A stretch of DNA of 64,000 bases from positions 77,934,001-77,998,000 of the forward strand of contig NC_073377.1 in the NCBI RefSeq assembly GCF_028641065.1, read 5' to 3'. Below, piece by piece: positions 1 to 45,385 of the stretch. The translations under genes were made by a program, and so were the position numbers. The number at the start of each line of letters is the position of its first letter. Position 1 is the stretch's first letter. Source of the stretch: Leucoraja erinacea (taxonomy: Eukaryota). The notes beneath the pieces are model-generated. The model worked only from the letters and a program-made list of their open reading frames with translations. It did no database searches and was not told the origin of the DNA.

Positions 1-182
1 CAGCTCCACGTAGGTAAGTCTGCAGCAGCTCCTCAGCAGCTCCTCGGCAGCTCCTCGGCAGCTCCACGGCAGGCTCCACGGCAGGCTCCACGGCAGGCTC
101 CTCAGCAGCTCCACGGCAGGCTCCACGGCTCCACGGCAGGCTCCGCAGCAGCTCCACAGCAGCTCCCCAGCTCCACAGGCTC
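1..182. repeat. Degenerate minisatellite (ggctccacggcag / cagctcctcgg units) inside family X copy
   Basis: Directly visible 10-13 nt tandem units. Confidence 0.85.
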
Positions 183-440
183 CGTGACTTGAGCCTCCAG
201 GTCGTTCCGGTGGAGGCCGCTCCACGGCGCTAGGCCCCAACGGCAACGGAGCTCCGACAGGGAAAAGGTCGGGTCTCCATGCATGGAAGAGATTAAAGGT
301 TTCCCCCACCCCCCACCCCCCACATACACATTTAAAAAAAAAAACTGATAAACAGCTACAAACTAAACCCTCAACAGGACAAAAAAACAAAAAAAACACA
401 GACAGACTGCAGAGGCCGCTGCGACACTGGTCGCGCCGCC
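1..440 (-). mobile_element. GC-rich ORF-less retroelement (family X), 5' part, runs off window start
   Basis: Reverse complement of 181-440 aligns with about 15520-15800 (ggagacccgaccttt...gtcgg, ggggcctagc.ccgtggag). It interrupts the Gypsy protease region at about 441. Confidence 0.8.
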
Positions 441-2993: not shown

Positions 2994-3282
2994 TTAAACA
3001 GCTATTTGTCTTCTGCAGCAAGATAGGTCACTATTTAGCGCTCTTCTGCATACTTCTTGAAATTACATCTTTTTTTTCCTTTGTCTAGGAATAACAATGT
3101 TTGGTTGGTGGTTATCTATAAGCACCTTGGTTGGATCACAAAACATGTTATTTTGCAAAGAAGCCTGACCATACTTGCAGCTGAAAAGGTAATCATTAAT
3201 TGCTAAAACTCATGCAAAATTAGGTAATCTTTGGTGTCTAAAGTTCCTATTTGGAGTAAAATTTATCATCTCCAAAAAAAAC

Positions 3283-3980
3283 CCAAACTGCTGGAGGAGC
3301 TCAATGCTGGATCAGGCAGCATCTGTGGAGGGAATGGGCAGATTACATTTCTGGTCAGGACTCTTCAGATCTAAAATGTCATCTGTCCATTCATTCCAAA
3401 AATGTTGCCTGATGTGCTGAGTTCCTTCAGCACTTTGTGTTATGCTTAAGATTTGAGCATCTGCAGTCTCTCCTGCCTTCATTACCTCTACACTAGAAAT
3501 AAATAATATGCTGGAAGCACACAGCAAGTCTGCAGCATCTGTGAAAAAAAAAACTGCCTGAAGGTGGAAACCAACTGCTTCTGATGAAGAGTTTTCAAAC
3601 TGAAATTTCTCAAAAGAAATTCAATTTTGGGAAAGCTTTCATTTAAAGAGACAATTATATTTACTGAATGCAGAATAACATTGTTCTGAGCTATTAAAAC
3701 AAGCCAGATAAATGTTCATGCGGTAACTTTGGTATAAGTATTTACACCTTTTGCAAATGCATTATAGTTATTCCAAAGATACACAAAAAGCTGGAGTCTC
3801 CAGAGAGAAGGAATGGGTGACATATCGGGTTGAGACCCTTCTTCTTCTGAGGAAGAGTCTCAAAACGAAACGTCACCCATTCCTTCTATCCAGTGATTCC
3901 GCCTGTCCCACTGAGTTACTCCAGCTTTTTTGTGTTTTTCTTCAGTTTAAACCAGCATCTGCAGTTCCCTCCTACATACT
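3283..3980. mobile_element. Cluster of Penelope pseudo-LTR-derived palindromic repeats
   Basis: gctggag..ctca..caggcagcatct arms in inverted orientation (3283-3475, 3775-3980), matching the terminus of the GIY-YIG Penelope copy at 22257-22385. Confidence 0.75.
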
Positions 3981-10219: not shown

Positions 10220-11560
10220 TAGAAACATAGAAAACATAGAAAATAGGTGCAGGAGGAGCCCATTCGGCCCTTCGAGCCAGCACCGCCATTCATTGTGATC
10301 ATGGCTGATCGTCCCCTATCAATAACCCGTGCCTGCCTTCTCCCCATATCCCTTGACTCCACTAGCCCCGAGAGCTCTATCTAACTCTCTCTTAAATCCA
10401 TCCAGTGATTTGGCCTCCACTGCCCTCTTTGGCAGGGAATTCCATAAATTCACAACTCTCTGGGTGAAAACGTTTTTTCTCACCTCAGTTTTAAATGACT
10501 TCCCCTTTATTCTAAGACTGTGGCTCCTGGTTCTGGACTCGCCCAACATTGGGAACATTTTTCACGCATCTAGCTTGTCCAGTCCTTTTATAATTTTATA
10601 TGTTTCTATAAGATATCCCCTCATCCTTCTAAACTCTAGTGAATACAAGCCTAGTCTTTTCAATCTTTCCTCATATGACAGTCCCTCCATCCCAGGGATC
10701 AATCTCGTGAACCTACCTACGCTCAATCAAAAGGATGTCCTTCCTCAAATTAGGGGACCAAAATTGTACACAATACTCCAGATGTGGTCTCACCAGAGCC
10801 CTATACAATTGCAGAAGAACCTCCTTACTGCTATACTGAAATCCGCTTGTTATGAAGGCCAACATTCCATTAGCTTTCTTCACTGCCTGCCATACCTGCA
10901 CGCCAACTTTCAGTGACCGGTGTACAAGGACACCCAGGACCTCCCCCTTACCTAACCTAACCCCATTGAGATAATAATCTGCCCCTTGTTTTTGGCGCCA
11001 AAGTGGATAACATCACATTTATCTATATTAAACTGCATCTGCCATGCATCTGCCCACTTACTCAACCTGTCCAGTTCACCCTGCAACCTCCTAACATCCT
11101 CTTCACAGTTCACACTGCAACCCAGCTTTGTGTCATCCGCAAACTTGCTAGTGTTGCTCCTAATTCCCTCTTCCAAATCATTAATATATTTGGTTAACAG
11201 TTGCGGCCACAACACCGAGCCCTGCGGCACTCCACTCGCCACTGCCTGCCATTCTGAAAAGGACCCGTTCACTCCTACTCTTTGCTTCCGGTCTGACAAC
11301 CAATTTTCTATCCATGTCAACACCCTACCACTCTACCATATGCTCTAATTTTAGTCACCAGTCTCCCTTGCGAGACCTTATCAAGGGCTTTCTGAAAGTC
11401 TAGATACACTACATGCACCGGCACCCCTTCATCCATTTTACTTGTCACATCCTCAAAAAATTACAGAAGATTAGTCAAGCATGATTTCCCTTTCATAAAT
11501 CCATGTTGACGGAATAATCCTTTTACTGCTATCCAAATACCCCATTATTACCTCTTTAAT
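10220..11560 (-). mobile_element. CR1/HER1-like LINE, 5'-truncated (RT C-terminal part plus 3' tail)
   Basis: ORF pieces with SGVPQGSVL, KFADDTKL and RPHLEYCVQFWSP; (tttctatg)n tail. Same subfamily as 39200-40810. Confidence 0.95.
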
Positions 11561-11764
11561 AAGGGTCGTGCCATCATGCTGTCGAACCCCTCGGCACGGG
11601 AGTGGTTCAGTCCGGAGGCGGCCCTTATCCAGAGGGTTTAAAGGCAGGGGTTTGGGTGCCATCTTTCTCTTGTTTGGTCTTCCCTACAACCAGGAGGAAC
11701 ATAATAAAAGGTGCCTCTCAAAACACTGGACTTCGTGCTTCCTTTTGAGACCCACGCACCACAT

Positions 11765-11779
11765 TGGTGACCCCCGACG
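11765..11779 (+). promoter_or_regulatory. Primer-binding site complementary to the tRNA-Trp 3' end
   Basis: tggtgacccccgacg versus the tRNA-Trp complement TGGTGACCCCGACG (one extra C). Same sequence on the minus strand at about 52759-52773. Confidence 0.8.
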
Positions 11780-11792
11780 CTCCATTGGCATC

Positions 11793-12710
11793 ATGATGGG
11801 GAGAAGAGAAAGCCCTATCTCCTCACAGTCTGGCCCGACCCTGTCTCTGGACGCGGTCTCGGTGAAACTGCCCAACTTCTGGACCACCCGGCTGCTCATC
11901 TGGTTCCAGCAGGCGGAGGCCCAGTTCAACCTGCGGGGCATCACGGTCGATGCCACCCGCTTCTATTACCTGGTGGGGGCCCTCGACCAGGACACGGTTG
12001 AAGAGGTCACGGACTTCCTCGCAGCCCCCCCGGACACTGATAAATATCTCGGCCTTAAGGAGCTCCTGCTCCAGATTTATGGCCTAAGCAGGATGGAGCG
12101 TGCTGCTAGGATCCTGCATATGGAGGGCCTAGGCGACCGACGGCCATCTAGCCTCCTAAAGGAGATGGTGGCTCTACTGGATGGGCACACGCCGTGCCTG
12201 CTATTCGAATATACATACCTGCATCTGCTGCCGGCCTACATTCGTCTGCAGCTCACAGATGCCTCCTTTGCTGACCTCAGGGCCCTCGGGAGGCGCGCCG
12301 ACGCGCTGTGGATGGCGCGCCCTGATGACGTCAGCGCGCTGGCCGTCAGCAGAGACGGGGTCGCGCTGAGGCCGATGCGCCCTGATGACGTCAACGCGCT
12401 GGCCATCGGCAGGCGCGCCGATGACGTCACCCCGGCAGCTCCCGATTTCCTCCGGTGGGGCGGGGGAGCTGTGGAAGGAGTGACAGCTCCAGCCCGACGG
12501 CCCGTACGATCGCCCCCAGTGGCAGTGAGGGGTACTGCACCTGCAGTCCAGCGCCAGCAAGCTGCAGGCACCACCAGTGGGAGCAGGCAAGCTCCAAGTA
12601 ACACCAACATGAGGCGCTGGTGCTATTTCCATCAGCGCTGGGGTGCTGCAGCACGACAATGCTGCCAGCCATGCACGTTCCCGGGAAACGCCTGGGCCGG
12701 CTGCCAATAG
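11793..12710 (+). CDS. gag: Retrotransposon Gag (CsRn1-like), open frame
   Basis: Uninterrupted ORF from the first ATG after the PBS; KLPNFW..WFQQAEAQF N-terminal motif; CYFHQRWGAAARQCCQPC. Confidence 0.85.
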   Translation: MMGRRESPISSQSGPTLSLDAVSVKLPNFWTTRLLIWFQQAEAQFNLRGITVDATRFYYLVGALDQDTVEEVTDFLAAPPDTDKYLGLKELLLQIYGLSRMERAARILHMEGLGDRRPSSLLKEMVALLDGHTPCLLFEYTYLHLLPAYIRLQLTDASFADLRALGRRADALWMARPDDVSALAVSRDGVALRPMRPDDVNALAIGRRADDVTPAAPDFLRWGGGAVEGVTAPARRPVRSPPVAVRGTAPAVQRQQAAGTTSGSRQAPSNTNMRRWCYFHQRWGAAARQCCQPCTFPGNAWAGCQ

Positions 12711-13471
12711 TCCCCGCGGCGGCCGGCCAAATTCACCGCCTCTTCGCCTGGGATCGGCGCTCCGGGACCCGCTTCCTCGTTGATACTGGAGCGGAGCTCA
12801 GCGTCCTGCCCCCTTCACTGGCCGACATTTGTTCCGGTAAGCGGGGGCCTGTCCTCACCGCGGCGAATGGCAGCCCCATCCGCACATATGAAGTGCGCAT
12901 GGTTCCGATCATGTTCGGCTCCTGCCATTACTCATGGCGGTTCACCATTGCCGACATCTCCCAGCCATTGCTCGGGGCCGATTTCCTCTGGGCGCATTCC
13001 CTCATGGTGGACGTCAGGCATCAGCGTTTGGTCAACGCCGCTACGATGGAGCCGATCACGTTGCGTTTGTATCTACCGGTGGGACCCCACAGTTTCGATC
13101 ATCGACCCCCAGCCACGGAGTGGTACATTTTATCCAGACTACCGGCCCACCTCTCCATGTACGAGCACGCCGTTGGCGCCGGATAAACTGCGTCTGGCAC
13201 GGCGGGAATTCCGCACAATGGAGACCTTGGGGATCGTCCACCCTTCGAGCAGCCCTTAGGCGTCCCCACTCCACATGGTCCCTAAGTCGAGCGGGGGCTG
13301 GCGACCTTGCGGGGATTACCGATTGCTGAACACCGCAACAACAGCGGATCGATACCCCGTACCCCACATCCAGGACTTCACCGCCCATTTGGCTGGGGCC
13401 ACAATATTTTCAAAAGTGGATCTGGTACAGGGTTATAACCAGATCCCGGTTCATCCGGATGACGTACCCAA

Positions 13472-15516: not shown

Positions 15517-16331
15517 GGGTGTGGCGGCGTGACACTGTTGCAGCGGCCCCTTCAGCCTGTATGTCTTTTTAAAATTTTGTCTAGTTAAATGTAGTTGTTC
15601 GTGTTTTTTATGAGTGTTTTTAACTGTGTATATGTGGGGGGCGGGGGGGTGCGAGGAGGAAAATTTAAAAATCTCTTCCCTGCATGGGAGACCCGACCTT
15701 TTTCCTGTCGGGTCTCCGTTGTTGTTGGGGCCTAGCACCGTGGAGTGGCCTCCTGCCGGAACAACCTGGGGGCTCCAGTCTCAGAGCCTGCGGAGCTGCG
15801 GATTCACCATTGTGGGGCTGGCCAGCCTCCAGAGCTCGGAAGCTCCAGCTGCAGCCGCAGGTCCGGTGGACTGTGATATCGGGAGCTCATGGGTCCAGGT
15901 GTGAGACCGCTTTTCGGAGCTCCCGCAACGCGACTTCTCCAGCCCATGTCGAACGACCCAGAGCAGGGCTGTACATCACCCCATGCGGCTTTAATGGCCG
16001 AGGGACAATCAAACGCTTGCCGGGGGCTCCAACATTGTGACATTTAGACCTGGAACGGGGCCGTACATCGCCCGGCGCGGCCTATAATGGCCATGGAACT
16101 TACCATCGCCCGCCTGGGGCTTCAACATCGGGAGAAAAATGGTGCAGGGGAGAGAAAGACTTTGCCTTCCATCACAGTGAGGAGGAGATTCACTGCAATG
16201 GATATTTGTGTAAATTGAATTGTGTGGGTGTATTGTAGGAATTTTCTCTGTTTGTATGGCTGTGGAAACTAAGTTTCATTTGAGCCTCACTGAGGTTCAA
16301 ATGACATGTAATAAATATTCAATTCAATTCA
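15517..16331 (+). mobile_element. Family X GC-rich ORF-less retroelement, full length
   Basis: T-rich 5' segment, G-run, 11-bp hairpin at 15687-15717, GC-rich core, tccatcacagtga stem, terminal stem-loop, AATAAA and (attca)n tail. Confidence 0.8.
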
Positions 16332-19300
16332 AAACTCAGAGTCACAGCTGCAAGCTGTTCTGTAAAGTGGTCACCCAAGCTAGGTTTGGCTTCTGCAATG
16401 TAAGGTGGCCATATTTACTTCACTTTAGAGAAACAGCGTGGGAACTGTTAATGGAATAGCGCCATCGATGGTGCAGTACCGTTGATGCAACACCCATGAG
16501 GCAGTAGCCAAGATGGATCCTGAATAAAATGGCTGAACCCAAGGCTCAAGTGTAAAGCCTCTGTTAATTAGTTGTGAAGATGTAATGGAGCAATTTACAG
16601 AGAGGAAACACAATATTAAAACATGGTGTCAGAAAGGGGCCTGACTCAGGATTCGTTGAGAGCTTTGATTGAATGAACGGCGATGGCAGACGATGTTTGT
16701 GAGTGAGTACACTACCGAGAGACGATTGTGCGGCCTACATTGTTTCCATTGATAGCGGGGCGGATTTGTCAGAAAAATGGCGCACCTAAAGCCCGCTAGG
16801 CAAATTAATTTTGAGGCAAGGGAACGGCCAATGGAGTGGAGACAATGGAGGGAGGAGTTTGAGCTCTATGTTGATTTGTGCATGGCAGGGAAGGATGACA
16901 AGACAATGAGGAAACTGCTCATATACCTAGTTGGACAGCAAGGGAGAGAGCTCTACCAAACGCTAGAGACACGGACACCGGAGGGCAACATACAAGAAGT
17001 TACGCTAGAGCAAGCTCTCGATGCTTTCGAACAGCATTGTCAACCCATGAAGAATGAGACCATCGACAGGTATAGATTCTTTATGAGAAGCCAAGAAAGA
17101 GGGGAGACTTTTGATTCGTTTTTAATAGAACTGAAGCTCTCGGCAGCTCATTGTGATTTTAGAGAGTTGAAGGATTCACTGATACGTGATTGAATAATAT
17201 GCGGCATAAGAGATGACATGCTGCCGGAGAGACTTCTCCGAGAAACCTCACTTGACTTAGAAAAGTGTGTGAAGGCATGCCAGGCTTCAGTGCTTGCCAA
17301 GGCCAGAATTGATGTCCTGTTAAGTGACCAATGACAAGATGTCTGTGCAGTGAGACAAGAGGGGAAAAGATACCAGCCAACCATACAGTGCAAATACTGC
17401 AGATACAAACATGAGAGGAAGAAGGAGAAATGTCTGGCATATGGCCGGGGGTGTTTCAAAAGCCATAAGAAAGATAATTTTGCATCCCAATGCATGGAAT
17501 AGCAGGTGCAACAGAAGAACCAGAAGAAAGAAAAGAAAGGGAAAAAAACCTGTGCATGCAGTGGAGGAAGTGGAGAGTTCCATTGATGAGTATGATGACA
17601 GTCAAGAGGATGATGAAATTCACACAATGGAACTGCAACCAGAAGCAGTAAAAGCAAAAAGTGTGCGCTGTGTTGAGGAGACTCAATTCCCAAAGAAAAT
17701 CTTTGCAACCATGATGCTGAAAGGGAAGGAAGTAAAATTCCTGGTGGACGGTGGAGCCACATGTAACTTAATTCCCAAGATGTATGCAAAGGATGTGGAT
17801 GAAACCAAGCAAGTTTGTCGATGTGCAACAATACGACAGTGGTGCATCTTGGGAAAAGCAAGGTGAGACTATTGAACCCAAAGAATGGAAGGAAATACAA
17901 AGTAGAATTTGTAGTCCTGGAGGAAGACTGCATTCCAATGCTGGGAAGCAGGGCAGCCCAGCAGATGGGGCTCATCTCAGTCTGTAAAGAGAACACAATT
18001 ACATTGAATGGCAGTGAAATCCCTCTGAGCAAGGAACGACTGATGGCTGAGCATGCTGATGTGTTTGAAGGGACAGGCAAATTTGAGGGCAAGTACCATC
18101 TGCAGGTAGATGACAGCATAATGTCGGTGATCCATCCACCACGAAGAATCCCTGTAGCCTTACAGAGTAAGCTGAAAGGGGAGTTAGGCAGACTAACAGA
18201 AGCTGAAATAATTGCCCCAGTAGAGACCCACTCTCCATGGGTATCCAGCCTTGTGTGTGTGGAAAAGCCTAATGGAAAGTTGAGAGTGTGTTTAGACCTG
18301 AGGGTTCTGAACAAGGGGCTTAAAAGAAATCATTACCCAATGACGCCGATTGAATATGTCCTCACAAACCTGAATGACGCCAAGGTCTTTAGCACGTTTG
18401 ATGTCAAGAATGGGTTTTGGCATGTGGAACTGGATGATGAGAGTTCTCAGCCTATGATATTTAACACACCATATGGCAGATATAGATGGAGATGCATATC
18501 ACGGCCCTTGAAAAGTTCCAGCAATGACAGAACCAAGTGTGGGAGGGCCTGGAAGGAGTGAGGTCTGTTGCTGAAGACATCCCAGTGTTTGGGAAAGGAA
18601 AAACTGCAGAGGAAGCAGAAAGAGACCATGACAGGAAGGTCAGAGCTCTGATGGAGAGATGTTGTGACAGAAACCTGAAGCTGAACATAGAGAAGGCAAA
18701 GCTGAGGGTGACGGAAGGCACTTTCATAGGACATAGAGTCTCTGCTGCAGGACTGAAACCAGATCCATGGAAGGTAGAAGCAGTGTTACAGATGCCTAAC
18801 CCAATGGATGTCCAAGGAGTTCTGCAATTTTTTGGGTTTGTTAACTATTTGAGCAAATTCCTTCCCGAACTAAGTGACCCATGTGAACCTCTGCACAAGC
18901 TGACACAGAAGGGTGTAGTTTGGTGGTGGGTAGAGGTGCATGACAGGGCGGGGATGGAAATAAAGAAGTTAGTAACTCCAGAGACAGTACTCAAATATTA
19001 TGATCCATCCATAGCCTGACAGTACAAGCCGAAACTGGACTTAAGGCGGTGCAGATGCAGGAGGGCCATCCAGTTGCCAGCAGGGCTCTGACGGATGCGG
19101 AGACTAGATATGCAGTGGTGTTTTTTCTAGAGAGGTTCCATGTGTACACATATGGAAGGCCAGTGAATGTGCAGTCAGACCATACGCCACTGGAGATAAT
19201 CACCACAAAACCACTTCATCGTGCACCAAAGAGTTTGCAGAGGATGCAGGTCAGGATGCAGACCTCAGATGTGACAATACGATACAGACCAGGGAAGGGA

Positions 19301-20050
19301 GGTGCAGCTTGCGGACATGCTGAGCAGAGCATATAGTCAGACTGACAAGACTGACAAGACCATGAGTGAACTGGACAATGAACTAAGCAACGCACATCCC
19401 AATGTCACAGTCTCTGCTGAATGACATAAGGGATGTAACAAAAAAAGATGAGACTATGCACAGACTGCAAGAGGTGATCAAACAAGGCTGACCAGAGAAC
19501 AAGAAGGATGTTGACCCAGAACTTATCTCCTATTGCCATGTGAGGGAGGAGCTGAGTGTTGGAGATGACCTCATATTCAGGGAGAGGGTGATCATCCCTC
19601 AAGCCAGGAGACAAGACATGATCACACGAGTACATGATTCCCGCATTGGTGTGAATGGCTGTCTAAGAAGAGCAAGAGAATGTGTGCACTGGCCCGGAAT
19701 GAGTGCAGAAATCAAGGACTTCATACCGAAATGTGAGACATGTCAAGCTCAAGGGAAAGTGCAACCAATAGAAACAATGCATTTCCATGAAATTCCAGAG
19801 GCCATGGGTGAAGGTGGGTGCAGATTTGTTCCACTTGGATGGAAGGAACTATTTGATCACCGTGGACTACTTCTCAGGATATTGGGAAATAGACTATCTA
19901 GAGAAAACACTGGCATTTAATGTCATCCATAAAATCAAAGGCCAGTTCGCAAGATATAGAATACCAGATCAGCTTATCACGGATAGTTGGCCACAGTTCA
20001 CAGCTGAGGAGTTCAAGAGATTTGCCAAGAAGTGGCAGTTTGAACATACG

Positions 20051-20810
20051 CCCTGCACTGAGACCCGACCTTTTCTCGTCGGGTCTCAGTCGTCGTTGAG
20101 GCCGCAACGAGGAGCGGCCTCCAACGGGAAGAAGCCGGGGACTCGGGTGCCGACTCACCGTCAGCGTCGTGGGGCTGCCGGGTCCGGNNNNNNNNNNNNN
20201 NNNNNNNNNNNNNNNNNNNNNNNNNNNNNNNNNNNNNNNNNNNNNNNNNNNNNNNNNNNNNNNNNNNNNNNNNNNNNNNNNNNNNNNNNNNNNNNNNNNN
20301 NNNNNNNNNNNNNNNNCGCTCTACAGGTCTGTGGACGACGGCGCCGAGCCCACGGCTCCCTAGGGGGAGACCGCTTTTCGGGGCTTCTGCGGCGGCGACT
20401 TCTCCCGCCCGAGAGCGGGGTCGAAGAGCTCCCGGAGCGGGGCCTGCCACCACTGCCCCGCGCGGCTGGAATGGCTGCGGACTCTGCGAGCGCACACCGG
20501 GGGCTCCAACATCTAGACCCGGTGTGCGACCTCGCACCACCCGGCGTGGCTATAATGGCCGCGGGACAATCGCCATTGCCAGCCGGGGGCCATGACTTTG
20601 ACTCTGACAGCGGGGGGGGGGGGGAGAGTGCAGTGGAGAGAGAAGTTTATTTGCCTCCATCACAGTTATGTGATGGATGTTTATGTTAAATGTAATTATG
20701 TTGTGTCTGGGGTCTATTTGTGTGTGTTATGTATGGCTGCAGAAACGGCATTTCGTTTGGACCTCCAGGGGTCCAAATGACAAATAAATTTGATTCTGAT
20801 TCTGATTCTG
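20051..20810 (+). mobile_element. Family X element (5'-truncated) nested in the Gypsy integrase
   Basis: Splits FEHT|SASPHYPQSNGKAES with acg duplicated; (attctg)n tail. Confidence 0.85.
20188..20316. other. Assembly gap (N run)
   Basis: Run of n characters. Confidence 1.
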
Positions 20811-22042
20811 ACGAGCGCATCACCCCATTATCCACAGAGTAATGGAAAGGCGGAGAGCAGTGTGAAAGTTGCGGTCATTGCTGAGGAAGACTAAGGTTCC
20901 AGGAGCTGATCCTTACCTGAGCATACTAGCTTTTTGAAACACACCAACACCTGGCATGAGTAGCAGTCCAGTACAAAGACTGATGAACAGACGTACCAGG
21001 ACCATACTACCAACTACTCAGATGCTACTCAAACCTGAAATTCAGAAAAAGGTAGGAGATGAATTGAGAGCAGCTAAAGACAGTGAAGCAGACTACTACA
21101 ACAGAGGATCTCAAGAACTGATTACCCTTAAGTTCGATTGAAGCCGACTGGTGACCGACATCAGCCCTGGAGGAAGGCTGTGGTTGGAGGCCATGTTGCG
21201 CAACCCAGATCATATGAAGTCAGAACCGAGGACGGCGTTATCTATCGTCGGGATCGGTGCCATCTGAGGAAGACTAAAGAGCCATTTCATTGCGCTGATG
21301 TTGACCTGGATGACCTGGTGACGTTGCCTGAACCGGAGCGAGACAATCAACCTATGAGCCAAAGACCAGTTCCCAGGGAGCATCAAACACTGACAACAAG
21401 ATCTGGTAGATGCATTCGAAAACCACATTATCTGCAGGATTATATGCCCAAATAACAAAAGGTCCTGATCATGTAGTTGATTATAGATCTAAAAGGCTAT
21501 TAGGTTATGGTTAAGATGTTAATGTTATATTGTTTTTTTATAGTTTGATGTGCATAGAAGCAGTGGTAATGGCCATGTTAAAACTAAACAAAGTAATAAA
21601 TTAAAAAGGGGAAAGGAATAACTAAATAAAGAAACAAACAAACAGATTAACAAAATAAAAAGGGGAAAGGGAATGAGGAACCAGACATGTGTTGTTCAAA
21701 GTGTAAATAATTCTGAGGCAGATCCAAGGAATGAAAATTTGAAAAATGTTGGAAAATGGACAGTCCGACACATGTTGGACTCATTGAAATAAGATGCCAT
21801 GGAAGAATTTAATTTATTGCTATAGAATATTCCTGTACACATGTGTTTTTTAAACAAAGGGGGATGTTATGGGAATAGCGCCATCGGTGGTGCAGTACCG
21901 ACGATGCAATACCCGTGAGGCAGTAGCCAAGATGGATCCTGAATAAAATGGCTGAACCCAAGGCTGGAGTGTAAAGCCTCTGTTAATTAGTTGCGAAGCT
22001 GTAATGGAGCAGTTTACAGAAAGGAAACACAATATTAAAACA

Positions 22043-24628: not shown

Positions 24629-25504
24629 TACCACCAGAGGCGCCGTATGATGGCAGCCTCTGCCTACAGCCTGTCTGTTTTTTCATCGTCTTGATATTTT
24701 TAGTCTGTTTAAAAGTATGTTTTTGGAGGTTTTTTTAGTCATTTTGTGGGGGAGATGGGGAGGGTAAGGGGGGAACCGTTTCTCAGTCACTTCCCGGTCG
24801 AGGATGCGACTATTCTCCGAGTCGCGTCTTCGCCCCCCCCCCCACACCCCCCACCCCCTGCCTTGCGGCCTACCATCTGGATTGGAGCGGCCTTTTCTGC
24901 CAGAGACCGGCCCGAGTTTCAGCAGCGGCGCAGCACTGCTTTACCATCGCGCAGCTTGGGGGCGTAGCATTACCGGGGATCGCCATGTTGAAAGCTCCGG
25001 AGTGTTGGGCCTACTGCTTTGACATTCTGGAGCTGTGGTTGCGGAGTTTCTAGCCGCGGGTGGTGCTGGCTTTAACATCGTGGAGTCCTGGGATCCCTTT
25101 GCCGAGGGCTACCAGTGTTGAATCTCCGCCCAGCTCGGCCTGTAGACTTCAGGGGTCGCAGTCTCCGGTAAGAAGTGGCCAATTCGGAAACTCCAAGCCG
25201 CTGAGAATGTTTTTCCGTTCCGACACCGGATTTCCAATCATCCCGGTGAGAGGGCGTGAACATCAGGCCACTGTAGCGGCAACTGCGGAGGGCTCAGAAG
25301 GCCCCGACCATGGGTGGACAAAGAGGAAGATGACTGAACTTTATTGCCTTCCCTCACAGAGGGAAACGTTGATTCCACTGTGTGGGGATGTTCATGTTAA
25401 ATTCTATCGTGTGTTGTGTCTTTTTATTCGTATGGCTGTATGGTAACTCAAATTTCACTGTTCCACTTGGTGCTTGTGAAAATAAATGTAAACTTGAACT
25501 TGAA
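24629..25504 (+). mobile_element. Family X element, full length, diverged subfamily
   Basis: Same architecture; hairpin at 24800-24831; tail aaatttcactg..gtgaaaataaa then (acttga)n. Confidence 0.75.
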
Positions 25505-26004
25505 TTATCAGAAGCCTCAATGAAAATTGATTATTAAAGAGAGTTTCATTAAAAAAAAAATCACAAAGTCGATTGGGCTAAAGTAATGTCCTTCAAACAT
25601 CAGGTGAGTGCAGTAAGGTTCCACAGTTTTCTCATTTGTCTATATGTGGTTGCTGGCAGATTCTCACTAGCACACTCCACCTCACCCATCTTTTGTGAGA
25701 TGCTTTGCACCTGTTCCTCACTCACTATATCTGTTTCCTTCCACTTGGGTGCATCAGAACTGGAGCTACACCGCGCAATGTGTTGGGAGTGAGCAAAGGT
25801 TGATTGGTGTTCGGGGAGTCTGGGTGATGAGGAATAGTGGGAATAGTTTGAAAGTTTATCGTAGTTGCAAACATGGAATTACAGTAGGAAAACCTTTGCT
25901 AGAAGTCACGTATTGTTTCAGTCCAAAGATGGTCACTGGTCAGGAATGGGTGCGCTGATGATGATCTGGTTCTTCCCAAAGATGGCACGATAACTGTGAA
26001 TTAT

Positions 26005-26978: not shown

Positions 26979-28810
26979 AGTCAAGCCAAGTTTATTCGTC
27001 ACATACACATACGAGATGTGCAGTGAAATGAAAAGTGGCAATGCTGGCGGATTGTGCAAAAACCCCCTACAAAACAGAATGGAACAATCACATATTCTTA
27101 TATTACATGTTTGTGGGAGGAAAAAAAACAAAACAAAAAAAACACCACACAACAGTAAATTGGTACAGCAAATTAGTCCCTGGTAAGATAGGAGTTTACA
27201 GTCCTAATGGCCTGTGGGAAGAAGCTCCTTCTCATCCTCTCCGTTTTCACTGCATGGCAATGGAGGAGTTTGCTAACCGTAGCAGCTGGAACAGTCTGTT
27301 GCTGGGGTGGAAGGGGTCCCCCTTGATCTTGTTGGCCATGGATTTGCACCTTCTAATGTATAGTTCCTGCAGGGAGGCGAGTGAAGTTCCCATAGTGCAT
27401 TCAGCCGAACGCACTACTCTCTGCAGAACCTTCTTGTCCTGGGCAGGGCAGTTCCCAAACCAAATTGTGATGTTTCTGGACAAGATGCTTTCCACAGCCA
27501 CTGAGTGGAAGCACTAGAGGATCCTCAGAGACACTCTGAATTTCCTCAATTGCCTGAGGTGGTAAAGGTGCTGCCTTGCCTTACTCATCACTGCGGCAGT
27601 GTGTGATGTCCATGTCAGATTCTCTGAGATGTGGACCCAGGTTTTTTTGCTCACCCTATCTACAGCATTCCCATTTATCTTCATTGGTGTGTATGTCCTC
27701 GGATGTTGTGCCCTCCTAAAGTCCACGATCAGCTCCTTATTTTTTTTGACATTCAAGAGGAGGCGGTTGTCTTGACGCCAGAGTGCCAGATCAGCCATCT
27801 CCTCCCGGTAGGCCTTCTCATTGTTATCTGAGATCAGGCCCACCACCACAGTGACATCAGCAAACTTGATTAGAGAGTTGGAGCTGAACCTAGCCACACA
27901 GTCATGTTTGTACAGGGAGTGCAATAGGGGGCTGAGGACACAACCCTGGGGGGATCATGTGCAAAGGGTGAGGGATTTTGATGTATTTCCTCCCATCTTG
28001 ACCACCTGGGGCCTAGCGGTGAGAAAGTCCAGGACCCAGGCACACAGGGGGGTGTTCAGACCCAATTCCAGCAGCTTGTCAGCCAGTCTGGTGGGGACTA
28101 TCGTGTTGAAGGCTGAACTGAAGTCTATGAACGGCATCCTCACATAGCCCCCCCCTTCTGGCTGTCAAGGTGAGAAAGAGCGGTGTGCAGAACCTCGGAA
28201 ACCGCATCATCCGTGGATCTGTTTGGACGGTATGCGAATTGTAGCGGGTCCATGTTGCGAGGAAGGCGCAGATGTGGTTCTTGACCAGCCTCTCAAAGCA
28301 TTTCATGACTACTGAGGTGAGGGCCGCTGGATGGTAGTCATTCAGGCAGGCTGGGGAGGCATTTTTTGGTACAGGTACAATGTTGTATCTTTTGAAGCAG
28401 GCAGGGACCACGGACTTGGCCAGGGAGATGTTGAATATTGTAGTGAGCACCGGAGCTAGCTGCGTAGCACAAGACTTAAATACTCGCCCCGATTTGCCAT
28501 CTGGGACCTACAGCTTTCCTCGTGTTCACCAATGATAGGTGCTCAGACAATGAGAATGTGTGCACATCCCCAGCGATGGACCTCCCTTCAGCTTCATTAG
28601 CCAGCACGCTGGTGGTGCTGTCGTTAGCCGGCAAACCTGGGGTGATGTGGCCCGACTCAAAACGAGGGTAGAGGAGTTCAGGTCATCAGTTAGGGAGATG
28701 CCAGCACTTCCGGTTGAGGGGGGGGGGCTATTCCGGTAGTTGGTTACAGTCCGTAGCCCCTGCCACAGGCGTCTGCTGTCCTGCTGCTCCATCTGTGACT
28801 CCATCTGAGG
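26979..28810 (-). mobile_element. Rex1/Babar-like LINE, degenerate RT region and 3' tail
   Basis: [40 protein letters not shown] and AVESILSRNITIWFGN in frameshifted ORFs. Confidence 0.9.
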
Positions 28811-28889
28811 ATCATGACTACCTGACAGGGACAGTGTAACACTTTTAGATCCTACTGTCATTAAACAGTTGGTTTTAAAATACATATTG

Positions 28890-29140
28890 GATTCACCGCG
28901 GAGCTGGCGATGCCTTACCTGGATCGCCGTTTGAAGCTCTGGAGTGTTGGGCCTGCTGCTGTAACATCATGGGACTGTGGTTTGCGGATTTCAATATCGT
29001 AGTGCCCTGGGATCCCTTTGCCGAGGGCTGCCAGCTTGAATCTCTGCCCAGCTCAGCATGTGGACTTCGGGAGCCGCGATCTCCGGTAGGAAGTGGCTGA
29101 TTCGGAAGTCCAAGCCGCTGAGAATGTCCTCCCATTCCGA
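28890..29140 (+). mobile_element. Family X internal fragment
   Basis: Aligns with 24960-25230 (gggatccctttgccgagggct, ccaagccgctgagaatgt). Confidence 0.75.
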
Positions 29141-29149
29141 CGTTGGATG

Positions 29150-30389: not shown

Positions 30390-31510
30390 TATTCATGTGG
30401 ATAGAGAACTGGCTGGCAAACAGGAAGCAAAGAGTAGGAGTAAACGGGTCCTTTTCACAATGGCAGGCAGTGACTAGTGGGGTACCCCAAGGCTCAGTAC
30501 TGGGACCCCAGCTATTTACAATATATATTAATGATCTGGATGAGGGAATTGAAGGCAATATCTCCAAGTTTGCGGATGACACTAAGCTGGGGGGCAGTGT
30601 TAGCTGTGAGGAGGATGCTAGGAGACTGCAGGGTGACTTGGATAGGCTGGGTGAGTGGGCAAATGTTTGGCAGATGCAGTATAATGTGGGTAAATGTGAG
30701 GTTATCCATTTTGGTGGCAAAAACAGGAAAGCAGACTATTATCTAAATGGTGGCCGATTGGGAAAGGGGGAGATGCAGCGAGACCTGGGTGTCATAGTAC
30801 ACCAGTCATTGAAGGTAGGCATGCAGGTGCAGCAGGCAGTAAAGAAAGCGAATGGTATGTTAGCTTTCATTGCAAAAGGATTTGAGTATAGGAGCAGAGA
30901 GGTTCTACTGCAGTTGTACAGGGTCTTGGTGAGACGACACCTGGAGTATTGCGTACAGTTTTGGTCTCCAAATCTGAGGAAGGACATTATTGCCATAGAG
31001 GGAGTGCAGAGACGGTTCACCAGACTGATTCCTGGGATGTCAGGACTGTCTTATGAAGAAAGACTGGATAGACTTGTTTTATACTCTCTAGAATTTAGGA
31101 GATTGAGAGGGGATCTTATAGAAACTTACAAAATTCTTAAGGGGTTAGACAGGCTAGATGCAGGAATGTTGTTCCCGATGTTGGGGAAGTCCAGGACAAG
31201 GGGTCACAGCTTGAGGATAAGGGGGAAATCCTTTAAAACCGAGATGAGAGGAACTTTTTTCACACAGAGAGTGGTGAATCTCTGGAACTCTCTGCCACAG
31301 AGGGTAGTTGAGGCCAGTTCACTGGCTATTTTTTAGAGGGAGTTAGATGTGGCCCTTGTGGCTAAGGGGATCAGGGGGTATGGAGAGAAGGCAGGTACGG
31401 GATACTGAGTTGGATGATCAGCCATGATCATATTAAATGGCGGTGCAGGCTCGAAGGGCCGAATGGCCTACTCCTGCACCTAATTTCTATGTTTCTATGT
31501 TTCTATGTTT
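30390..31510 (+). mobile_element. CR1/HER1-like LINE, 5'-truncated, with about 315 codons of open RT frame
   Basis: ORF 30359-31336 SGVPQGSVLGPQLFTIYINDL..KFADDTKL; (tttctatg)n tail. Confidence 0.95.
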
Positions 31511-32084: not shown

Positions 32085-33110
32085 TGTGTAGGAAGGAATT
32101 GTCAAAAAGCTGGAGTAGCTCGGCGAGCTGGACAGTATCTCTGGAGAAACAGAATAGGTGACATTTCAGGTCGAGACCCTTCTTCAGACTGAGAGTCAGG
32201 TGAAACCACCAAGGGCGCTGGGGAGATGGCCAACCCTGCTGGCAGTCTGTTCGTTTTCTCATCTTTTAGTTATTTTAGTGTTTGTTAAAAGTTTGATTTA
32301 ATGTACTTCAGTTTGTTTTATGTGGGGGGGGGGGGAGAATTGGGGGAAACTTTTTTTTTCTGGTTCTTACCTTCCCGGAGATGTGATCATTTTTTGGATC
32401 ACATTCTACCATTGATGGAGCTGGTAGCCGCCTCGGACTGTCGTGAGCCCCACCGCGGGGCGTGAGCTTAACATCGGAGCGGATCCCTTGCCTGGGATCG
32501 CTCCCACCGCGGCCTGCGGACTTATCATCAAGGGTTCACAGTCTCAGGAGAGGCTCGTCGTGAATTCCAACACCACAGAATGTTCAACCAGCCCCGACGC
32601 GAGGTTTGATCGGCCCGGCGCGGGTAGCTGACAACCCCCCGATGCGGGAGCTGAACGCCTCGACGCGGAGGGCCCGAACGTCACCAGCTACGGGAGTCAA
32701 GATCATCCCATCAACGGGGGCTCGATGCCCCCGACCGAGGAAGAACACAAGGGAAGGACTTGACCTTTATTTTGCCATCCATCACAATGAGGAATGTATA
32801 GGAGTCACTGTGGTGGATGTTCATGTTAAAATGTGTTTTTGAGTCTGTTGCTTTGTAATTGTATGACTGACCTGGTCAGTGAAATTCCTTGTATGTTGCA
32901 AAACATACTTGCCGAATAAAATCTGATTCTGATTCTGATTCTGATTCTGAAAAGGGAAACGAGAGATATAGACAGTGATATAGAGAGATATAGAACAAAT
33001 GAATCAAAGATCTGAAGAAAAGAAAGAAACGATGATACAGGAAACATGCCATTGTTAGCAGTGGGCAAGGTGAAAAGGAGTGACCCGCTGAGTTACTCCA
33101 GCTTTTTGTG
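32085..33110. mobile_element. Penelope pseudo-LTR relic interrupted by a family X element (32207-32950, +)
   Basis: Penelope terminal motif on both sides; the insert has the family X architecture and an (attctg)n tail. Confidence 0.75.
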
Positions 33111-33889
33111 TTAAATAATATTCATAGATGGTATTTGTAGTCATCTTTTACCTGAAACTACATTCCTGAATGTTTGGAACCCAGGGAAATTAGTCCCGTG
33201 AAGAATATTCTCCTCATGCAACAGCTAAAGTATGTATTCATAACTGCTACATCATTATCCTTACAGATGATTTATCTGCATATCAAAGAACTGCAGATTC
33301 ACTGTAATAAAAATTGAAGATGATGGTTTATACCAAAAATAGACACAAAATGCTGGAGTAACTCAGCGGGTCAGGCAGCATCTCTGGAGAAAATGGATAG
33401 GTGATGTTCCGGGTTGGGACACTTATTCAGATTACCATTGTGACCATAAGAAGAAAAATACAACTCAGGCAATTAGAAAGGAAAGTGGAATAGAATCTTG
33501 AACATCGTACATGGAAGAACCAAGTCACATCGATAAGCTGGATGAAATATGTTAAGTCACAAACCTGCAACAAGAATGTTCACATGCCAAGTTCATTGAA
33601 GGCTGAGGTACTTTTTGGTAGGAGGTATCAGAACGATCATTCCAACTTCCATTCCAGTGTATCCTTCAATTTAGGAAATGAGGACATGACCTAAGCATTT
33701 AAAAGGCTTTCAGATGGGCACATCGATATGGAGGGAAATGGATCACATTTAGGCAGAGTTGATGAGTTTAACTTGGCATCATGTTTGGCATGGATATTGT
33801 TGAGCCAAAGGGCATGTTCCTATGCTGTTATATTGTTCTGTGTTCTATGTTAACATAGAGATACACAACACTGAAACACATTGAACTTT

Positions 33890-34380
33890 CAGTCCTGGGC
33901 TTCCTTCGTTGTCAGATTGAGGCCACATGCAAATTGGAGAAACAGCACCTCATATTTTGCTTGGGTAGCTAACAATCCAGCAGTTTGAACATTGAATTCT
34001 CTCATTTTAAGTAACATCTACTTCCACTCCCCTCCCCTCCCCTCCTCCCTTGTCTCTACCTCCACCCTGATTGTTTTACCAGTCCCATATTTCTCCATAT
34101 GTTTTCCCTCTTCAGATCACACCACTGCCAACACTGGGCTTACCAGGCCCCGCCTGAGGTAATTTGTGGCCCTAATTGGTCCTGGTTGTTTCTCGCCTCC
34201 AGCCCTACACAGCCACCAACCCACCCCCACGCTGACCCCCTCCCCTACTTTCAGGCTGTGGAAATGTCCCAACCCAAATTGTCACCCATCCTTTTCCTCC
34301 AGACATGCTGCCTGACACGCAGAGTTACTCCAGCACTTTGTCTCTATCATAGGTACAGACTAGCATCTGCAGTTTGTTTT
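33890..34380 (+). mobile_element. Old Penelope 3' end
   Basis: LGFLRCQIEATCKLEKQHLIFCLG..LNIEFSHF followed by a pseudo-LTR motif. Confidence 0.75.
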
Positions 34381-34907
34381 ACATTGATTACATGCCTGGT
34401 TTGAAGCATACCTTGCTTTATGAACCATACCTTATTAGCATCACCAAAATGCAGTGTTAATATTTTGGTGATCACATTATGATGACATGGCTGGTTTATT
34501 ATAATGTCATTGTCTGTACTGGTGCAAAGGCTATTTTTTTCACTCGATTAAAGAACATCATGCCAGATTTGTTTGTAGTCTTTGGACAGTCTGTCTAATC
34601 ATTTGTAGTAACAATTCTGAGTCCTGCTATGGCTCATTTGGTAAGGATATGACAAAAACAGAATAATTCTTCAGTTTTCACAAGCTTTACCATGAATGAT
34701 GGAGAGATAATTTGTACATGAAAAGTAAACAATTGACAATTGTAAATTAAATTTAATGCATTATAATTTGTTCCTTCCCTTTTTAAAATCTTGTAAATAT
34801 GATCCATCATTTGATAAAAATTAAAATTAGCTATTTGTTTGATTTTGTCAGGCAAAATACAATTATTTTCTTAAACATGATTTCCACTGAACCTGTAGGT
34901 TCCACTG

Positions 34908-35312: not shown

Positions 35313-35659
35313 TAGTACACCTAAAGTGTAAGTGAAATGAATTTGTCAGCAGCGGTACAATGAAAAAGAACACACAATTTAATATAAACTTCCACCACTG
35401 CATTCATCACAGTGAAGGCACAAAATTTGGCCAGTCATCCTCCATTTTCCCCTGTGGTCTGGACTGGATATGGACTGGACATTGGTGTCAGGAAAAGAAT
35501 GAGATTGTGGCGTCTGCTGTATGATAAACTTATTGTGGTGCCCTGACATGGCCATCTTGTTCCGTTCCTGCTCCCCCGATCTAGAACATCTGATGGCGAA
35601 GTGCCAATCAATCTACCTACTGAGTTAGTTCTCAACTTCACCATGACTGCAGTCTATAT

Positions 35660-36369: not shown

Positions 36370-37745
36370 AGGCTGAATGCCTTCCACATCATCGCTGAGG
36401 ACTTCAACCAGGCCAACCTGAAGAAGTATCTGTCACACTACACTCAGCAAATCACCATCAACACCAGAGGAGGCGAACACACTTGACCACTGCTATACCA
36501 CCATCTGGAATGTCTCCCTCATTCTGATCCTCACCTGCACTTTGGAAAGTATGACCATCTGCTGTCCTTCTACTTGTGAACATACAGACAGAGACTGAAG
36601 AGAGCGGTAACGACAAAGAGGACTATGAAGTGCCACAATGATCCGCCGTAATTAAATGTTTTGAGAGAGGTTGGTTATGATGCGAATCAACTCCTGCCTC
36701 AGAAATGACCTTGATCCACTTCAAGTTGCCCATTGCCCCAACAGGTCTACAGCAAATGCTATATCACTGGCTTACCACCCATCTTTGAACATCTGGATAA
36801 AAGGATCACATACATTGGTCTACTGGTCATTATCTACAACTCGGCATTAAACACTATCTCACCAAACCCATCATCAAGCCCCAAGACCTGGGCCTCTGTA
36901 CCTTCTTTTGCATCTGGATCCTTGATTTCCTTATCGGCAGACTTCAATCAGTGTTGATTGGTAACAACATCTTCTCCCTCCTGAACATTAACACAGGTGC
37001 ATCTTAAGGTCATGTCCTCAGCCCTCACCTCCAGTGCCATCGACAAATTACTGATCACAGCACTGTGGCTGGCTAAATCACTGGTGGTAATGAGTCAGTG
37101 TATAGAAGAGAGATAGAACACCTAGTTGAATGGTACCATAACAACAACTTCTCGCTCTGTCAACAAGACCAAGGAACTCATCTTTGACCCCGGAAAGGGA
37201 AAGTCAGAAGACCACACACCAGTATTCATTGGTAGGTTGGTGGTGATATGAGTTATCACCTTCATTTTGTTAGACTTTAACATCTCGGATGACCTGTCCT
37301 GGGCCCAACACATAGATGCAATCGTAAAGTACATGTATCAGTGCCTCCATTTTCATCAAAGTTTCAAGAGATTTGGTATGTATCTGAATAACTAACATCT
37401 ATAGATATACTGTACAGATGTAATGTACAAAGTATACTGATTGATTGCATCATGGCCTGGCGTGGCATTTCCAAACCACAGGAACAAAAGAAAATACAGA
37501 GAGTGGTGGAGCCAGCCAACCTAACAAAAGCACAGCCTTCCCCTTAATTTAAAGCATCTATATGAGATGCTGCCTCAAGTAGGCGGAACATATTATCAAG
37601 GATTCCCACCATCCAAGCCATCTCCACTTCTTGCTGCTACCATCATACCAAAGGTGCATAACCAGAACTCCCACACCACCAGGTTCAGGAACAGTTACTT
37701 TCCTACAACTAACAAGTTCTTGAACCAACCTGCACAATCCTAACC
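36370..37745 (+). mobile_element. Old Rex1/Babar-like LINE (endonuclease end plus RT remnants)
   Basis: AFHIIAEDFNQANLKK and decayed RT motifs collinear with 26979-28810 and 60890-62715. Confidence 0.75.
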
Positions 37746-38140: not shown

Positions 38141-39199
38141 TAATCTTTCTATTAGGCTGATTGAATGTTGCTCAAGACCTAATGCAGAATTGACTTTTTT
38201 TTTTCCCTATTGGCCCACAACACTGTGATAGCGCTCCAGAAAGCACCCCCCCCCCCATATATTTTATATATATAAAACAAACAACTGCAAACCCAACACA
38301 AACCGCTACGGAACTCCACTGGTCACCAAGCAGAAAAACAATGCTCTACAGTGCCCTTTGACACCTTCCTCTCGGCCAATCTTGAATGCAATTAACCTTG
38401 GATTTCATGTGATCTAACTTTCCTGACTAATATACCCTGCTGGACCTTGCCAAAGGTCTTATTTCTGAGCTCTATCCATGTAGGCTCATTGGACGGTCTG
38501 TCAAAAACATTCTCTCTGAGCACTGTAGTTATGCCCTCCCGCATCAAAAAAGGCAAGCCTCTCTCCCCAGCTCTACTTTTACCAGCATCTCTATCATGCA
38601 GCATCTACACCCTGGGATGCAGAGCTACCAGTGCTGCCTTCACCATGTTTCTATATATCCAGTTCTTTGAAATATTTTCCTGGCCAATCTAATAACATTT
38701 TTCATCCACTATATTGGGGAAAACAGCATTAAATGCATCAAGAAAGGTTATACTCTAAATTCTATGGATTTGTATTCCATAATGGAATAAATTCCCACCT
38801 AGTGGAATATATCAAAAACAAAAATTAACATGTCCAAAATGCCAACCATCCAACAAAAAGCAAAAAATGTGTTGACAAATGAAAATAAACCCAGGAAGAA
38901 GGGAATAGTTCTAATCATTGATTTGGCAAAGTCCAGCATGGTAGGCCTGTCAGGAAGGAAGAGTATCCATTATTGATGTTAATGGATTTTTTTCCTCATT
39001 TGTTCCTTCTGATCTTCTCAACAGTGATGGATCCAAAAATCCAGTTGCTAACACTTCCCAATATTAAGTGTAACAACATCAGGATAATATATCTTACTTT
39101 ACCATTTGTTACTATTAAATGCACCAAAATCCAAGCACTATGTTATAAAGTATTCTCTGTGGTCCGAAGAAGGTGAGTTCATGTATGGCTATTTGATTT

Positions 39200-40810
39200 T
39201 CACCAGTTAAAAATGGAGACTGAAAGATGATAAATCCCCTGGGCCTGATGGTCTGCATCCCAGGGTCCTCAGGGAGGTGGCTCTAGAAATAGTGGACGCA
39301 TTGGTGATCATTTTCGAATGTTCAATAGATTCAGGATCAGTTCCTATGGATTGGAGGATAGCTAATGTTATCCCACTTTTCAAGAAAGGAGCAAGAGTGA
39401 AAACAGGGAATTACAGACCAGTTAGCCTGACCAGTGGTGGGAAAGATGCTGGAGTCAATTATTAAAGAGGTAATAATGGGACATTTGGATAGCAGTAAAA
39501 GGATTAGTCCAAGTCAACATGGATTTATGAAAGGGAAATCATGCTTGACTAATCTTCTGGAATTTTTTGAGGATGTGACAAGTAAAATGGATGAAGGTGT
39601 ACCAGTGGATGCAGTGTATCTAGACTTTCAGAAAGCCTTTGATAAGGTCCCGCACGGGAGACTGGTGACTAAAATTAGAGCACATGGTATTGGGGGTAGA
39701 CTGTTGACATGGATAGCAAATTGGTTGGCAGACCGGAAGCAAAGAGTAGGAGTGAACGGGTCCTTTTCAGAATGGCAGGCAGTGGCGAGTGGAGTGCCGC
39801 AAGGTTCGGTGTTGGGGCCGCAGCTGTTTACCATATATATTAATGATTTGGAAGAGCGGATTAGGAGCAACACTAGCAAGTTTGCAGATGTCAAGAAGCT
39901 GGGTGGCAGTGTGAACTGTAAAGAGGATGTTAGGAGGTTGCTGGGTGACTTGGACAGGTTGAGTGAGTGGGCAGATGCGTGACAGATGCAGTATAATATA
40001 GATAAATATGAGGTTATCCACTTGGGTGGAAAAAACAAGGGGCAGATTATTATCTCAATTGGGTAAGGTTAGGTAAGGGGGAGGTACAGCGAGACCTGAA
40101 TGTCCCTTGTACACCAGTCACTAAAAGTTGGCGTGCAGGTACAGCAGGCAGTGAAGAAAGCTAATGGAATGTTGGCCTTCATAACAAGAGGATTTCAGTA
40201 TAGGAGTAAAGAGGTTCTTCTGCAGTTGTATAGGGCTCTGGTGAGACCACATCTGGAGTATTGTGTACAGTTTTGGTCTCCTAATTTGATGAAGGACATC
40301 CTTGTGATTGAAGCAGCGTAGGTTCACGAGATTGATCCCTGGGATGGCGGGACTATCATATGAGGAAAGATTGAAAAGACTAGGCTTGTATTCACTGGAG
40401 TTTAGAAGGATGAGGTGGATCTTATAGAAACATATAAAATTATAAAAGGACTGGACAAGCTAGATGCAGGAAAATGTTCCCAATGTTGGGCGAGTCCAGA
40501 ACCAGGAGCCACAGTCTTAGAATAAAGGGGAGGTCATTTAAGACCGAGGTGAGAAAAAACTTTTTCACCCAGAGAGTTGTGAATTTATGGAATTCCCTGC
40601 CACAGCGGGCAGTGGATGCCAAATCACTGGATGGATTTAAGAGAGTTAGATAGAGCTCTAGGGGCTAGTGGAATCAAGGGATATGGGTAAAAGGCAGGCA
40701 CGGGTTATTGATAGGTGACGATCAGCCATGATCACAATGAATGGCGGTGCTGGCTCGAAGGGCCGAATAGCCTTCTCCTGCACCTATGTTCTATGTTTCC
40801 ATGTTTCTAT
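39200..40810 (+). mobile_element. CR1/HER1-like LINE, 5'-truncated, frameshifted RT
   Basis: GNYRPVSLTS, QHGFMKGKSCLTNLLEFFE, YLDFQKAFDKVPH; tail present. Confidence 0.95.
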
Positions 40811-41016
40811 GAAACATTTGGCCCTTTGAATCATCCACTTAAGTGAAGAAGGAGTGACTATAATTCCCAATTCCTGTGGACAATGTGCTTCTGATTTGTT
40901 TGTTTTGTGCCCATAGTGCAAAAGATCAAGTGTAGCTCAATAATTTTTTCCTCGCACATTTTTCCTTTCTTGCTACACAATTTGAATTTCCCCTGAAAAG
41001 GGGATTAATAAAGTAT

Positions 41017-44979: not shown

Positions 44980-45385
44980 ATTTTCAAGATTTCAAGGTTT
45001 CATGGTCAGATTATTTTCACGTGTACCAATTAAGGTATAGTGAAATTTGAATTACCATACATCGATACTAAAAAAATTCAACAAAGCACACGACTACATA
45101 AAAGTTAACATAAACATCCACCACAGTGGATTCCACGTTCCTCACTGTGATGAAAGGCAATGAAGTCCAAACTTCTTCCGCTTTTATTCTCACGCGGTCA
45201 GCGCAGTCGAACCATCTGCAGTCAGGGTGATTGAAGCTCCGGCAGCCAATGGTCGAAGCGCCACGTCGGGGCGATCAAAGCTCTTGCGCTGGGCAGTCGA
45301 AGCTCCTGCGTCGGGCGGCCGAAGTTCCTGCGGCTTGGAGTTCCCGAAGTCGGTCTCTAACCAGAGACCACAAGCTTCTTGCAAC
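44980..45385 (-). mobile_element. Family X element, 3' half
   Basis: Reverse complement has tgcctttcatcacagtgaggaacgtggaatccactgtggtgga and the tail aaatttcactatacc..ggtacacgtgaaaataa. Confidence 0.75.

Follow-up and report, generated by a model that had tools for sequence, protein, structure and literature searches.

An abundant ORF-less retroposon group in Leucoraja erinacea with LINE-like ends and a covarying internal hairpin

Bipartite ORF-less LINE derivatives, which consist of LINE parts only, are described in PMC5786205 with RTE, Ingi, Vingi and R2 as the only sources listed, and a CR1-derived SIDE, Persaeus, is described in PMC6740152, where such elements are called rare. SINEs, as defined by SINEBase (PMC3531059), carry a head at least 60% identical over at least 60 nt to tRNA, 5S or 7SL RNA and are transcribed by Pol III; the shark SINEs of PMC5499810 have L2 tails. 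A non-autonomous partner that shares its 3′ end with a Rex1 element is exemplified by SINE2-5_NV with Rex1-24_NV (PMC3747384).

Here we analysed repeats in a stretch of 64,000 nt (the window) and found that they are members of separate subfamilies within one abundant group of ORF-less retroposons of 0.6-0.9 kb. As in the bipartite LINEs (PMC5786205) and Persaeus (PMC6740152), there is neither an ORF nor a Pol III head, the ends are LINE-like and transcription is presumably by Pol II; the copy number is high, as in Persaeus. In contrast to both, the partner is probably of the Rex1/Babar type, which the accessible text of these two sources does not list, only about 30-45 nt at each end are LINE-like and flank 650-800 nt without a LINE match, and there are at least eight deeply diverged subfamilies with differing tails. 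A conserved common body with exchangeable LINE-derived tails recalls the CORE, Deu and V SINE superfamilies; unlike these, the elements have no tRNA, 5S or 7SL head, are longer, and keep an internal hairpin (H2) by its fold and not by its sequence. SINE2-5_NV, for its part, is a sea-anemone SINE with a tRNA head (PMC3747384). The group works like a bipartite ORF-less LINE derivative, and we file it in neither class because it falls outside the SINE definition and, judged by the LINEs sampled, does not consist of LINE parts only. The accessible text of PMC5499810 and PMC6274825 contains no element of this kind, and no published description of the group was found in the main text of openly accessible papers.

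Copies in the window and across the genome

An earlier note, made from the window alone, had listed nine related segments. Eight of them match the subfamily models (Table 1), and the ninth, 38170-38340, was hit neither by the 16 BLAST queries nor by the eight profile models. The F2 copy is truncated at its 5′ end at consensus position 166, just before H2, and sits in the integrase region of a decayed Gypsy-like LTR retrotransposon with gag/pol-like frames (16431-22042; LTRs 16431-16623 and 21852-22042, 91% identical). In the F1-like copy on the minus strand, the 5′ end (440-411) closely resembles how the LINE families L201 and L209 begin, and H2 (278-248) has one damaged arm; within window positions 1-200 this copy passes into a tandem array of short GC-rich units that runs off the window, and expandable internal arrays likewise occur in F6 copies. 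The F3 fragment adjoins an oppositely oriented Rex-type LINE at the point where the latter is truncated on its 5′ side; this junction could be a chimera from insertion or a later nested event.

Table 1. Copies of the retroposon group in the window and their parts
Feature	Position	Strand	Basis or remark
F1 copy, full-length	15521..16331	+	86% to F1 consensus positions 2-855 (model match 15521-16319)
Rex-LINE-like 5′ terminus of F1 copy	15523..15551	+	F1 consensus 1-32 against intact LINE 5′ ends, 84%
T-rich tract then G-run, F1 copy	15552..15662	+	sequence; order common to 8/8 consensuses
Hairpin H2, F1 copy	15687..15717	+	11 bp, pyrimidine-rich loop; same stem as in the earlier note
Hairpin H3, F1 copy, partly decayed	16168..16202	+	second conserved stem, overlooked in the earlier note
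Rex-type 3′ terminus, F1 copy	16274..16331	+	stem-loop, AATAAA, 5-nt tandem tail
F2 copy, young subfamily	20051..20812	+	93-97% to F2 (model match 20051-20807)
H2, F2 copy	20058-20089	+	
H3, F2 copy	20657-20676	+	
Terminal stem-loop, F2 copy	20751-20788	+	
F3 copy, full-length	24632..25506	+	90% to F3 (model match 24632-25503)
H2, F3 copy	24800-24831	+	
H3, F3 copy	25349-25388	+	
Terminus, F3 copy	25453-25486	+	
F4 copy, full-length	32206..32950	+	90% to F4 (model match 32206-32939)
H2, F4 copy	32377-32409	+	
H3, F4 copy	32779-32817	+	
Terminus, F4 copy	32883-32920	+	
F1-like copy, 5′ part	164..440	-	82%
F7-like copy, 3′ half, without H2	44984..45377	-	76-81%
F3 internal fragment	28894..29147	+	80% to F3
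F5-like 3′ fragment	35318..35464	-	78-80%

The window is rich in other repeats as well. Rex-type LINE fragments lie at 27191-28945(-), 37410-37544(+) and 61089-62660(-), the last of which ends with a typical stem-loop and tandem tail. Copies of another LINE (10220-11562, 30398-31507 and 39459-40811; 78-92% identical) are probably CR1-like, with an RT distant from the Rex type. A further short repeat, which is very abundant and frequently forms inverted pairs, occurs at 3272-3976, 32103-32196, 33299-33431, 34247-34391, 45628-46000, 54979-55206, 60058-60431 and elsewhere. A GC-rich inverted repeat pair of about 2 kb (11561-13471 and 51278-52977, 94-96% identical) was noted together with 48167-49154 and a nested inverted repeat near 48.2-48.9 kb.

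In the 2.19 Gb genome, each of four window copies used as a query gave its own separate set of full-length relatives, the first-look candidates numbering 7,712 (F1 query), 12,428, 6,580 and 4,668. Four further subfamilies were drawn from copies in 100 arbitrarily placed 10-kb stretches (the 1.0 Mb sample). This gave eight consensuses, of which F1-F5 are full length (19-30 copies each) and F6-F8 cover the first ~340 nt only (13-14 copies each). With H2 left out, their 5′ 330 nt are 45-73% identical in pairwise comparisons, and the view that the window holds decayed copies of a single family was ruled out, as its copies fall in separate subfamilies. The top-ranked copies of each subfamily diverge from their own consensus by a median of 2.7-9.2%, which indicates several amplification waves, some of them recent. 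The 1.0 Mb sample contained 30 matches to a 3′ profile and 33 to a 5′ profile, and the models span 25,052 of its bases; if this sample, taken from contigs C1-C22, is typical, the genome holds about 65,000 copies and the group makes up at least 2.5% of the sequence. Two F5 copies (contig C14, 8.00 Mb) are 98% identical and inverted about 2.5 kb apart, which suggests local duplication or conversion.

All eight consensuses begin with the same order of parts: a GC-rich motif of ~35 nt comes first, followed by the T-rich tract, the G-run, a few pyrimidines in a row (the pyrimidine stretch), H2, and a GC-rich body with internal duplications specific to the subfamily. In the five full-length consensuses, a second hairpin (H3) and then a stretch rich in T and G precede the terminal stem-loop, behind which come AATAAA and a tandem tail of 4-6 nt units. 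The 5′ end is sharp, since 22 of 29 F2 copies picked by their 3′ half alone extend to consensus position 10 or less, and the 5′ module lies upstream of 24 of the 30 3′ blocks in the 1.0 Mb sample. Folds of the first 50 nt were mostly no stabler than shuffles (z -2.2 to +1.1 in the eight consensuses), so that the 5′ end is best described as a sequence motif and not as a proven hairpin. Pairing between G-run and pyrimidine stretch is predicted for seven of the eight consensuses. Motifs similar to 5′ splice sites occur on the sense strand in F3 and F5 (G-run) and on the antisense strand in F4 and F7 (before H2). H3 is conserved mainly at the sequence level, with few paired changes, and its pattern had no match in metagenome contigs.

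Termini resembling those of Rex-type LINEs

The genome holds 57,345 LINE candidates that bear PF09004, a domain that we presume to be linked to Rex LINEs. In intact partner LINEs, a single ORF (about 900-1000 aa) encodes APE, RT and PF09004, the APE matches falling below the curated cut-off, and their RTs are up to about 72% identical to the nearest proteins, mostly teleost or unnamed RTs. According to PMC4635592, the 3′ UTR of Rex1/Babar is followed by tandem repeats of 5-7 nt. The partner LINEs share APE, RT and tandem tail with this description, and some of their tails have units of 3-4 nt. For 5 of 12 LINE loci the best primer site is the peptide that the published forward primer encodes, and a CR1-like control lacks this peptide; the published reverse primer did not match in the LINE loci (10-12 mismatches). 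We provisionally call the partners Rex1/Babar-type, based in part on the tail description and on the primer peptide in these five loci.

Both ends of the elements resemble those of Rex-type LINEs. At the 5′ end, F1 consensus positions 1-32 are 84% identical to the starts of five intact LINEs (L201, L204, L205, L206 and L208). A profile built from eight LINE 5′ ends gives F6 12.5 bits and F1 8.0 bits, in each case at the very start of the consensus. Searched against the 1.0 Mb sample, it has just two matches of at least 8 bits, and both are 5′ ends of elements. For F2, F3, F4, F5, F7 and F8 the same profile gives at most 2.9 bits, a weak or absent match, so that against the roughly five LINE families sampled a partner-like 5′ end is detected in F1 and F6 and goes undetected in the other six. 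The start motif of F6 is that of the LINEs; it resembles the L1 YY1 site, whose sequence is given in PMC8887483, and is intact in F6. At the 3′ end, two LINE ends (L284 and L257) match the F5 tail with 92% identity over 39 nt and have its tandem unit. When 30 element ends were compared with 103 sampled LINE ends, 20 of the 30 scored higher than all of 20 shuffles; F1- and F4-type tails did no better than shuffles against the same set. Since both ends resemble Rex1-type LINE ends, the group likely borrows the copying enzyme of these LINEs.

The earlier note had proposed a non-tRNA, ORF-less, non-autonomous retroelement with a compensatory hairpin. This description stands, and the LINE-like termini were not foreseen in it. 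A match to LINE UTRs, which the note had named as speaking against its proposal, exists for the terminal 30-45 nt and, among the LINEs sampled, is absent from the interior. Such ends are what would be expected if the group were a plain, old internal-deletion derivative (SIDE), with an interior made of the 5′ and 3′ UTR of a Rex lineage that is extinct or lies outside the sample, and with H2 and H3 as inherited structures of LINE UTRs. We regard this as rather unlikely. LINE 5′ UTRs also run from motif to T-rich tract, and the sampling of LINEs is incomplete (the best 150 of 4,927 N-terminal candidates, with the 5′ ends of about five families read), both of which leave room for it. Against it, the 650-800 nt interior had no match in 13 LINE stretches comprising UTRs and bodies (best E 0.08), and the H3 part of the 3′ profile had no significant match in 112 LINE 3′ ends (best E 0.03, in the terminal part only). 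Inspection by eye of the 1 Mb sample found no 5′ module upstream of LINE N-terminal matches. In addition, one shared H3 precedes the tails of different LINE families in different subfamilies.

Compensatory changes in hairpin H2

The four stems reported in the earlier note all lie where it placed them and fold as it drew them. Their place within the element needs correction: the note had spoken of a 5′ hairpin, and it lies 162-174 nt inside the full-length consensuses. The claim that both sides of the stem change together was borne out by tree simulations, a count on real copies and RNAalifold, all of which place the covariation above chance. Across 11 pairs in eight consensuses, pairing is kept in 85 of 88 cells despite 28 parsimony changes, and 13 cells have changed on both sides; the arm limits were set by eye and one bulged base was removed from F4, which favours structure somewhat. 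Of 7,500 tree simulations, 1,285 had a matching number of changes; in these, at most 77 cells were paired (mean about 64) and at most 11 had changed on both sides, the mean for the three main sets being 2-3. Independently, we counted pairs in 24 real copies, the three top-ranked of each subfamily, which were not selected for pairing and of which 22 are distinct. Pairing reached 91.7%, whereas shuffles gave 80.8 ± 1.3% and slid registers 36-50%, and nine of the 11 pairs had changed on both sides. RNAalifold recovered the helix. G-U pairs outnumber A-C pairs by 5 to 1 on the sense strand, which points to a sense-strand RNA.

Decay was then compared between stem and body within subfamilies, with 172 of 179 rows kept. 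CpG decay was equal (0.119 in the stem, 0.106 in the body, p 0.31), and other changes were fewer in the stem (0.032 versus 0.047, p 1e-4), a difference to which subfamily variation in the body may contribute. All H2 pairs were intact in 101 of the 172 copies. Because CpG sites decay alike in stem and body of the genomic copies, the fold appears to have been selected chiefly in source elements. An RNA-level role of H2 in source elements is quite likely; that this role is specifically the capture of LINE protein is a tentative proposal, somewhat less likely than not.

Equal CpG decay and occasional double changes within single copies (8 in 172) would also be expected if the paired changes arose at the DNA level, by quasi-palindrome repair or template switching and not by selection on RNA. 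This explanation is improbable given the sense-strand excess of G-U over A-C, the tandem G-A/A-G mismatch that H2 keeps in F8, although repair would erase such mismatches, and the fixed position and loop character of the hairpin across subfamilies that are only 45-73% alike.

The class of the element was examined as well. ARAGORN found no tRNA in the window or in eight loci, a B box is absent from the eight consensuses, and Rfam gave no family in the window at the gathering score. The SINE head of at least 60% identity over at least 60 nt to tRNA, 5S or 7SL was thus not found by any of these searches, in line with what the earlier note had said about a tRNA-like head. Long T-runs speak against Pol III transcription, and those in the first 100 nt of the element therefore argue against it here. 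The note was also right that no ORF is shared, as the eight consensuses, three of which represent the first ~340 nt only, have their longest ATG frames on different strands and at different positions. Among the features of bipartite LINEs and SIDEs, the elements thus show the lack of an ORF and, in F5 and in 20 of 30 ends, a LINE-derived 3′ end, the F1 and F4 tails being unmatched; an origin from LINE parts only is not seen, since the interior is unmatched in an incomplete sample of LINEs.

A structured module with no source in the sampled LINEs might instead derive from a cellular non-coding RNA, in which case the group would be a SINE-like chimera with a new type of head. The odds are poor for this origin: at E≤1 Rfam gave six weak or flank matches in 12 loci, none of them credible, and only one of these, at chance level, lies inside the elements; the module sits behind a LINE-like 5′ end; and the B box is missing. 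One spurious match, to a plant microRNA, came from a near-perfect, MITE-like palindrome of 240 nt (L149, 2748-2985). Finally, HDV-like ribozymes are known at the 5′ end in several LINE clades (PMC5786205), and a hairpin that belongs to a self-cleaving ribozyme is nonetheless highly improbable here, as Rfam gave no ribozyme match, the hammerhead core is absent from the eight consensuses and a loose HDV descriptor matched only F6, at position 121 and off the 5′ end; an HDV-ribozyme-headed retroposon was rejected because neither Rfam nor the descriptor revealed a nested double pseudoknot at the 5′ end.

Insertion, expression and a proposed life cycle

Target-site duplications were not in excess: words of at least 7 nt were shared in 12 of 111 usable copies (of 138), compared with 6.5-12.6% of mismatched pairs. 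One clear case, of 10 bp, was seen in an F2 copy nested in a Rex-like coding stretch (L145). Inspection by eye of nine full-length LINEs showed no duplications, and elements and LINEs are alike in ending with short tandem repeats, mostly without target-site duplications. At other loci, a further subfamily lies directly behind a Rex tail (L060, 2140-2920) and a CR1-like LINE lies inside a Rex LINE (L074, 1968-4056).

Expression was examined with four RNA runs from two studies on one full-length F2 copy, in libraries that could hardly show a 5′ end. Reads came from many paralogues and both strands, and at no place did many reads start or end, so that a discrete transcript was not seen in these runs. 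In the single-cell runs, 352 and 407 reads enter poly(A) just past the tail (mixed consensus), which fits the use of AATAAA as a poly(A) signal. Reads of one strand pile up next to the T-rich tract, a pattern consistent with antisense read-through that was primed internally.

Taken together, we consider it likely that the group is a Rex1-mobilised, bipartite-like Pol II retroposon with a selected RNA module (H2 and H3). Its cycle probably begins with Pol II transcription at the LINE-like 5′ end, continues with recognition of the 3′ stem-loop by the LINE protein and ends with insertion by TPRT. RNA polymerase II would initiate at the LINE-derived 5′ end, at a putative promoter that may include the YY1-type motif intact in F6. 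The LINE protein would bind the 3′ stem-loop and reverse-transcribe the RNA at a nick. H2 and H3 would be selected in source elements as RNA signals, serving to compete for LINE protein or to survive, and most genomic copies would decay after insertion. A bolder reading, which we put forward with some reserve, is that of an undescribed superfamily of protein-free, Pol II-transcribed parasites of Rex1/Babar, with a non-LINE RNA module (H2 and H3), swapped LINE tails and a SINE-like life without a small-RNA head.

A Rex1-type case that makes up at least 2.5% of the sampled sequence would extend the list of LINE clades with ORF-less derivatives, which so far comprises four clades (PMC5786205) and CR1 (PMC6740152), and would explain a large share of the repeats in this genome. 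The natural compensatory variants of H2, together with matched tails of elements and LINEs, provide material for testing whether a LINE enzyme is captured in trans by more than the 3′ end, a question that bears on the origin of SINE bodies.
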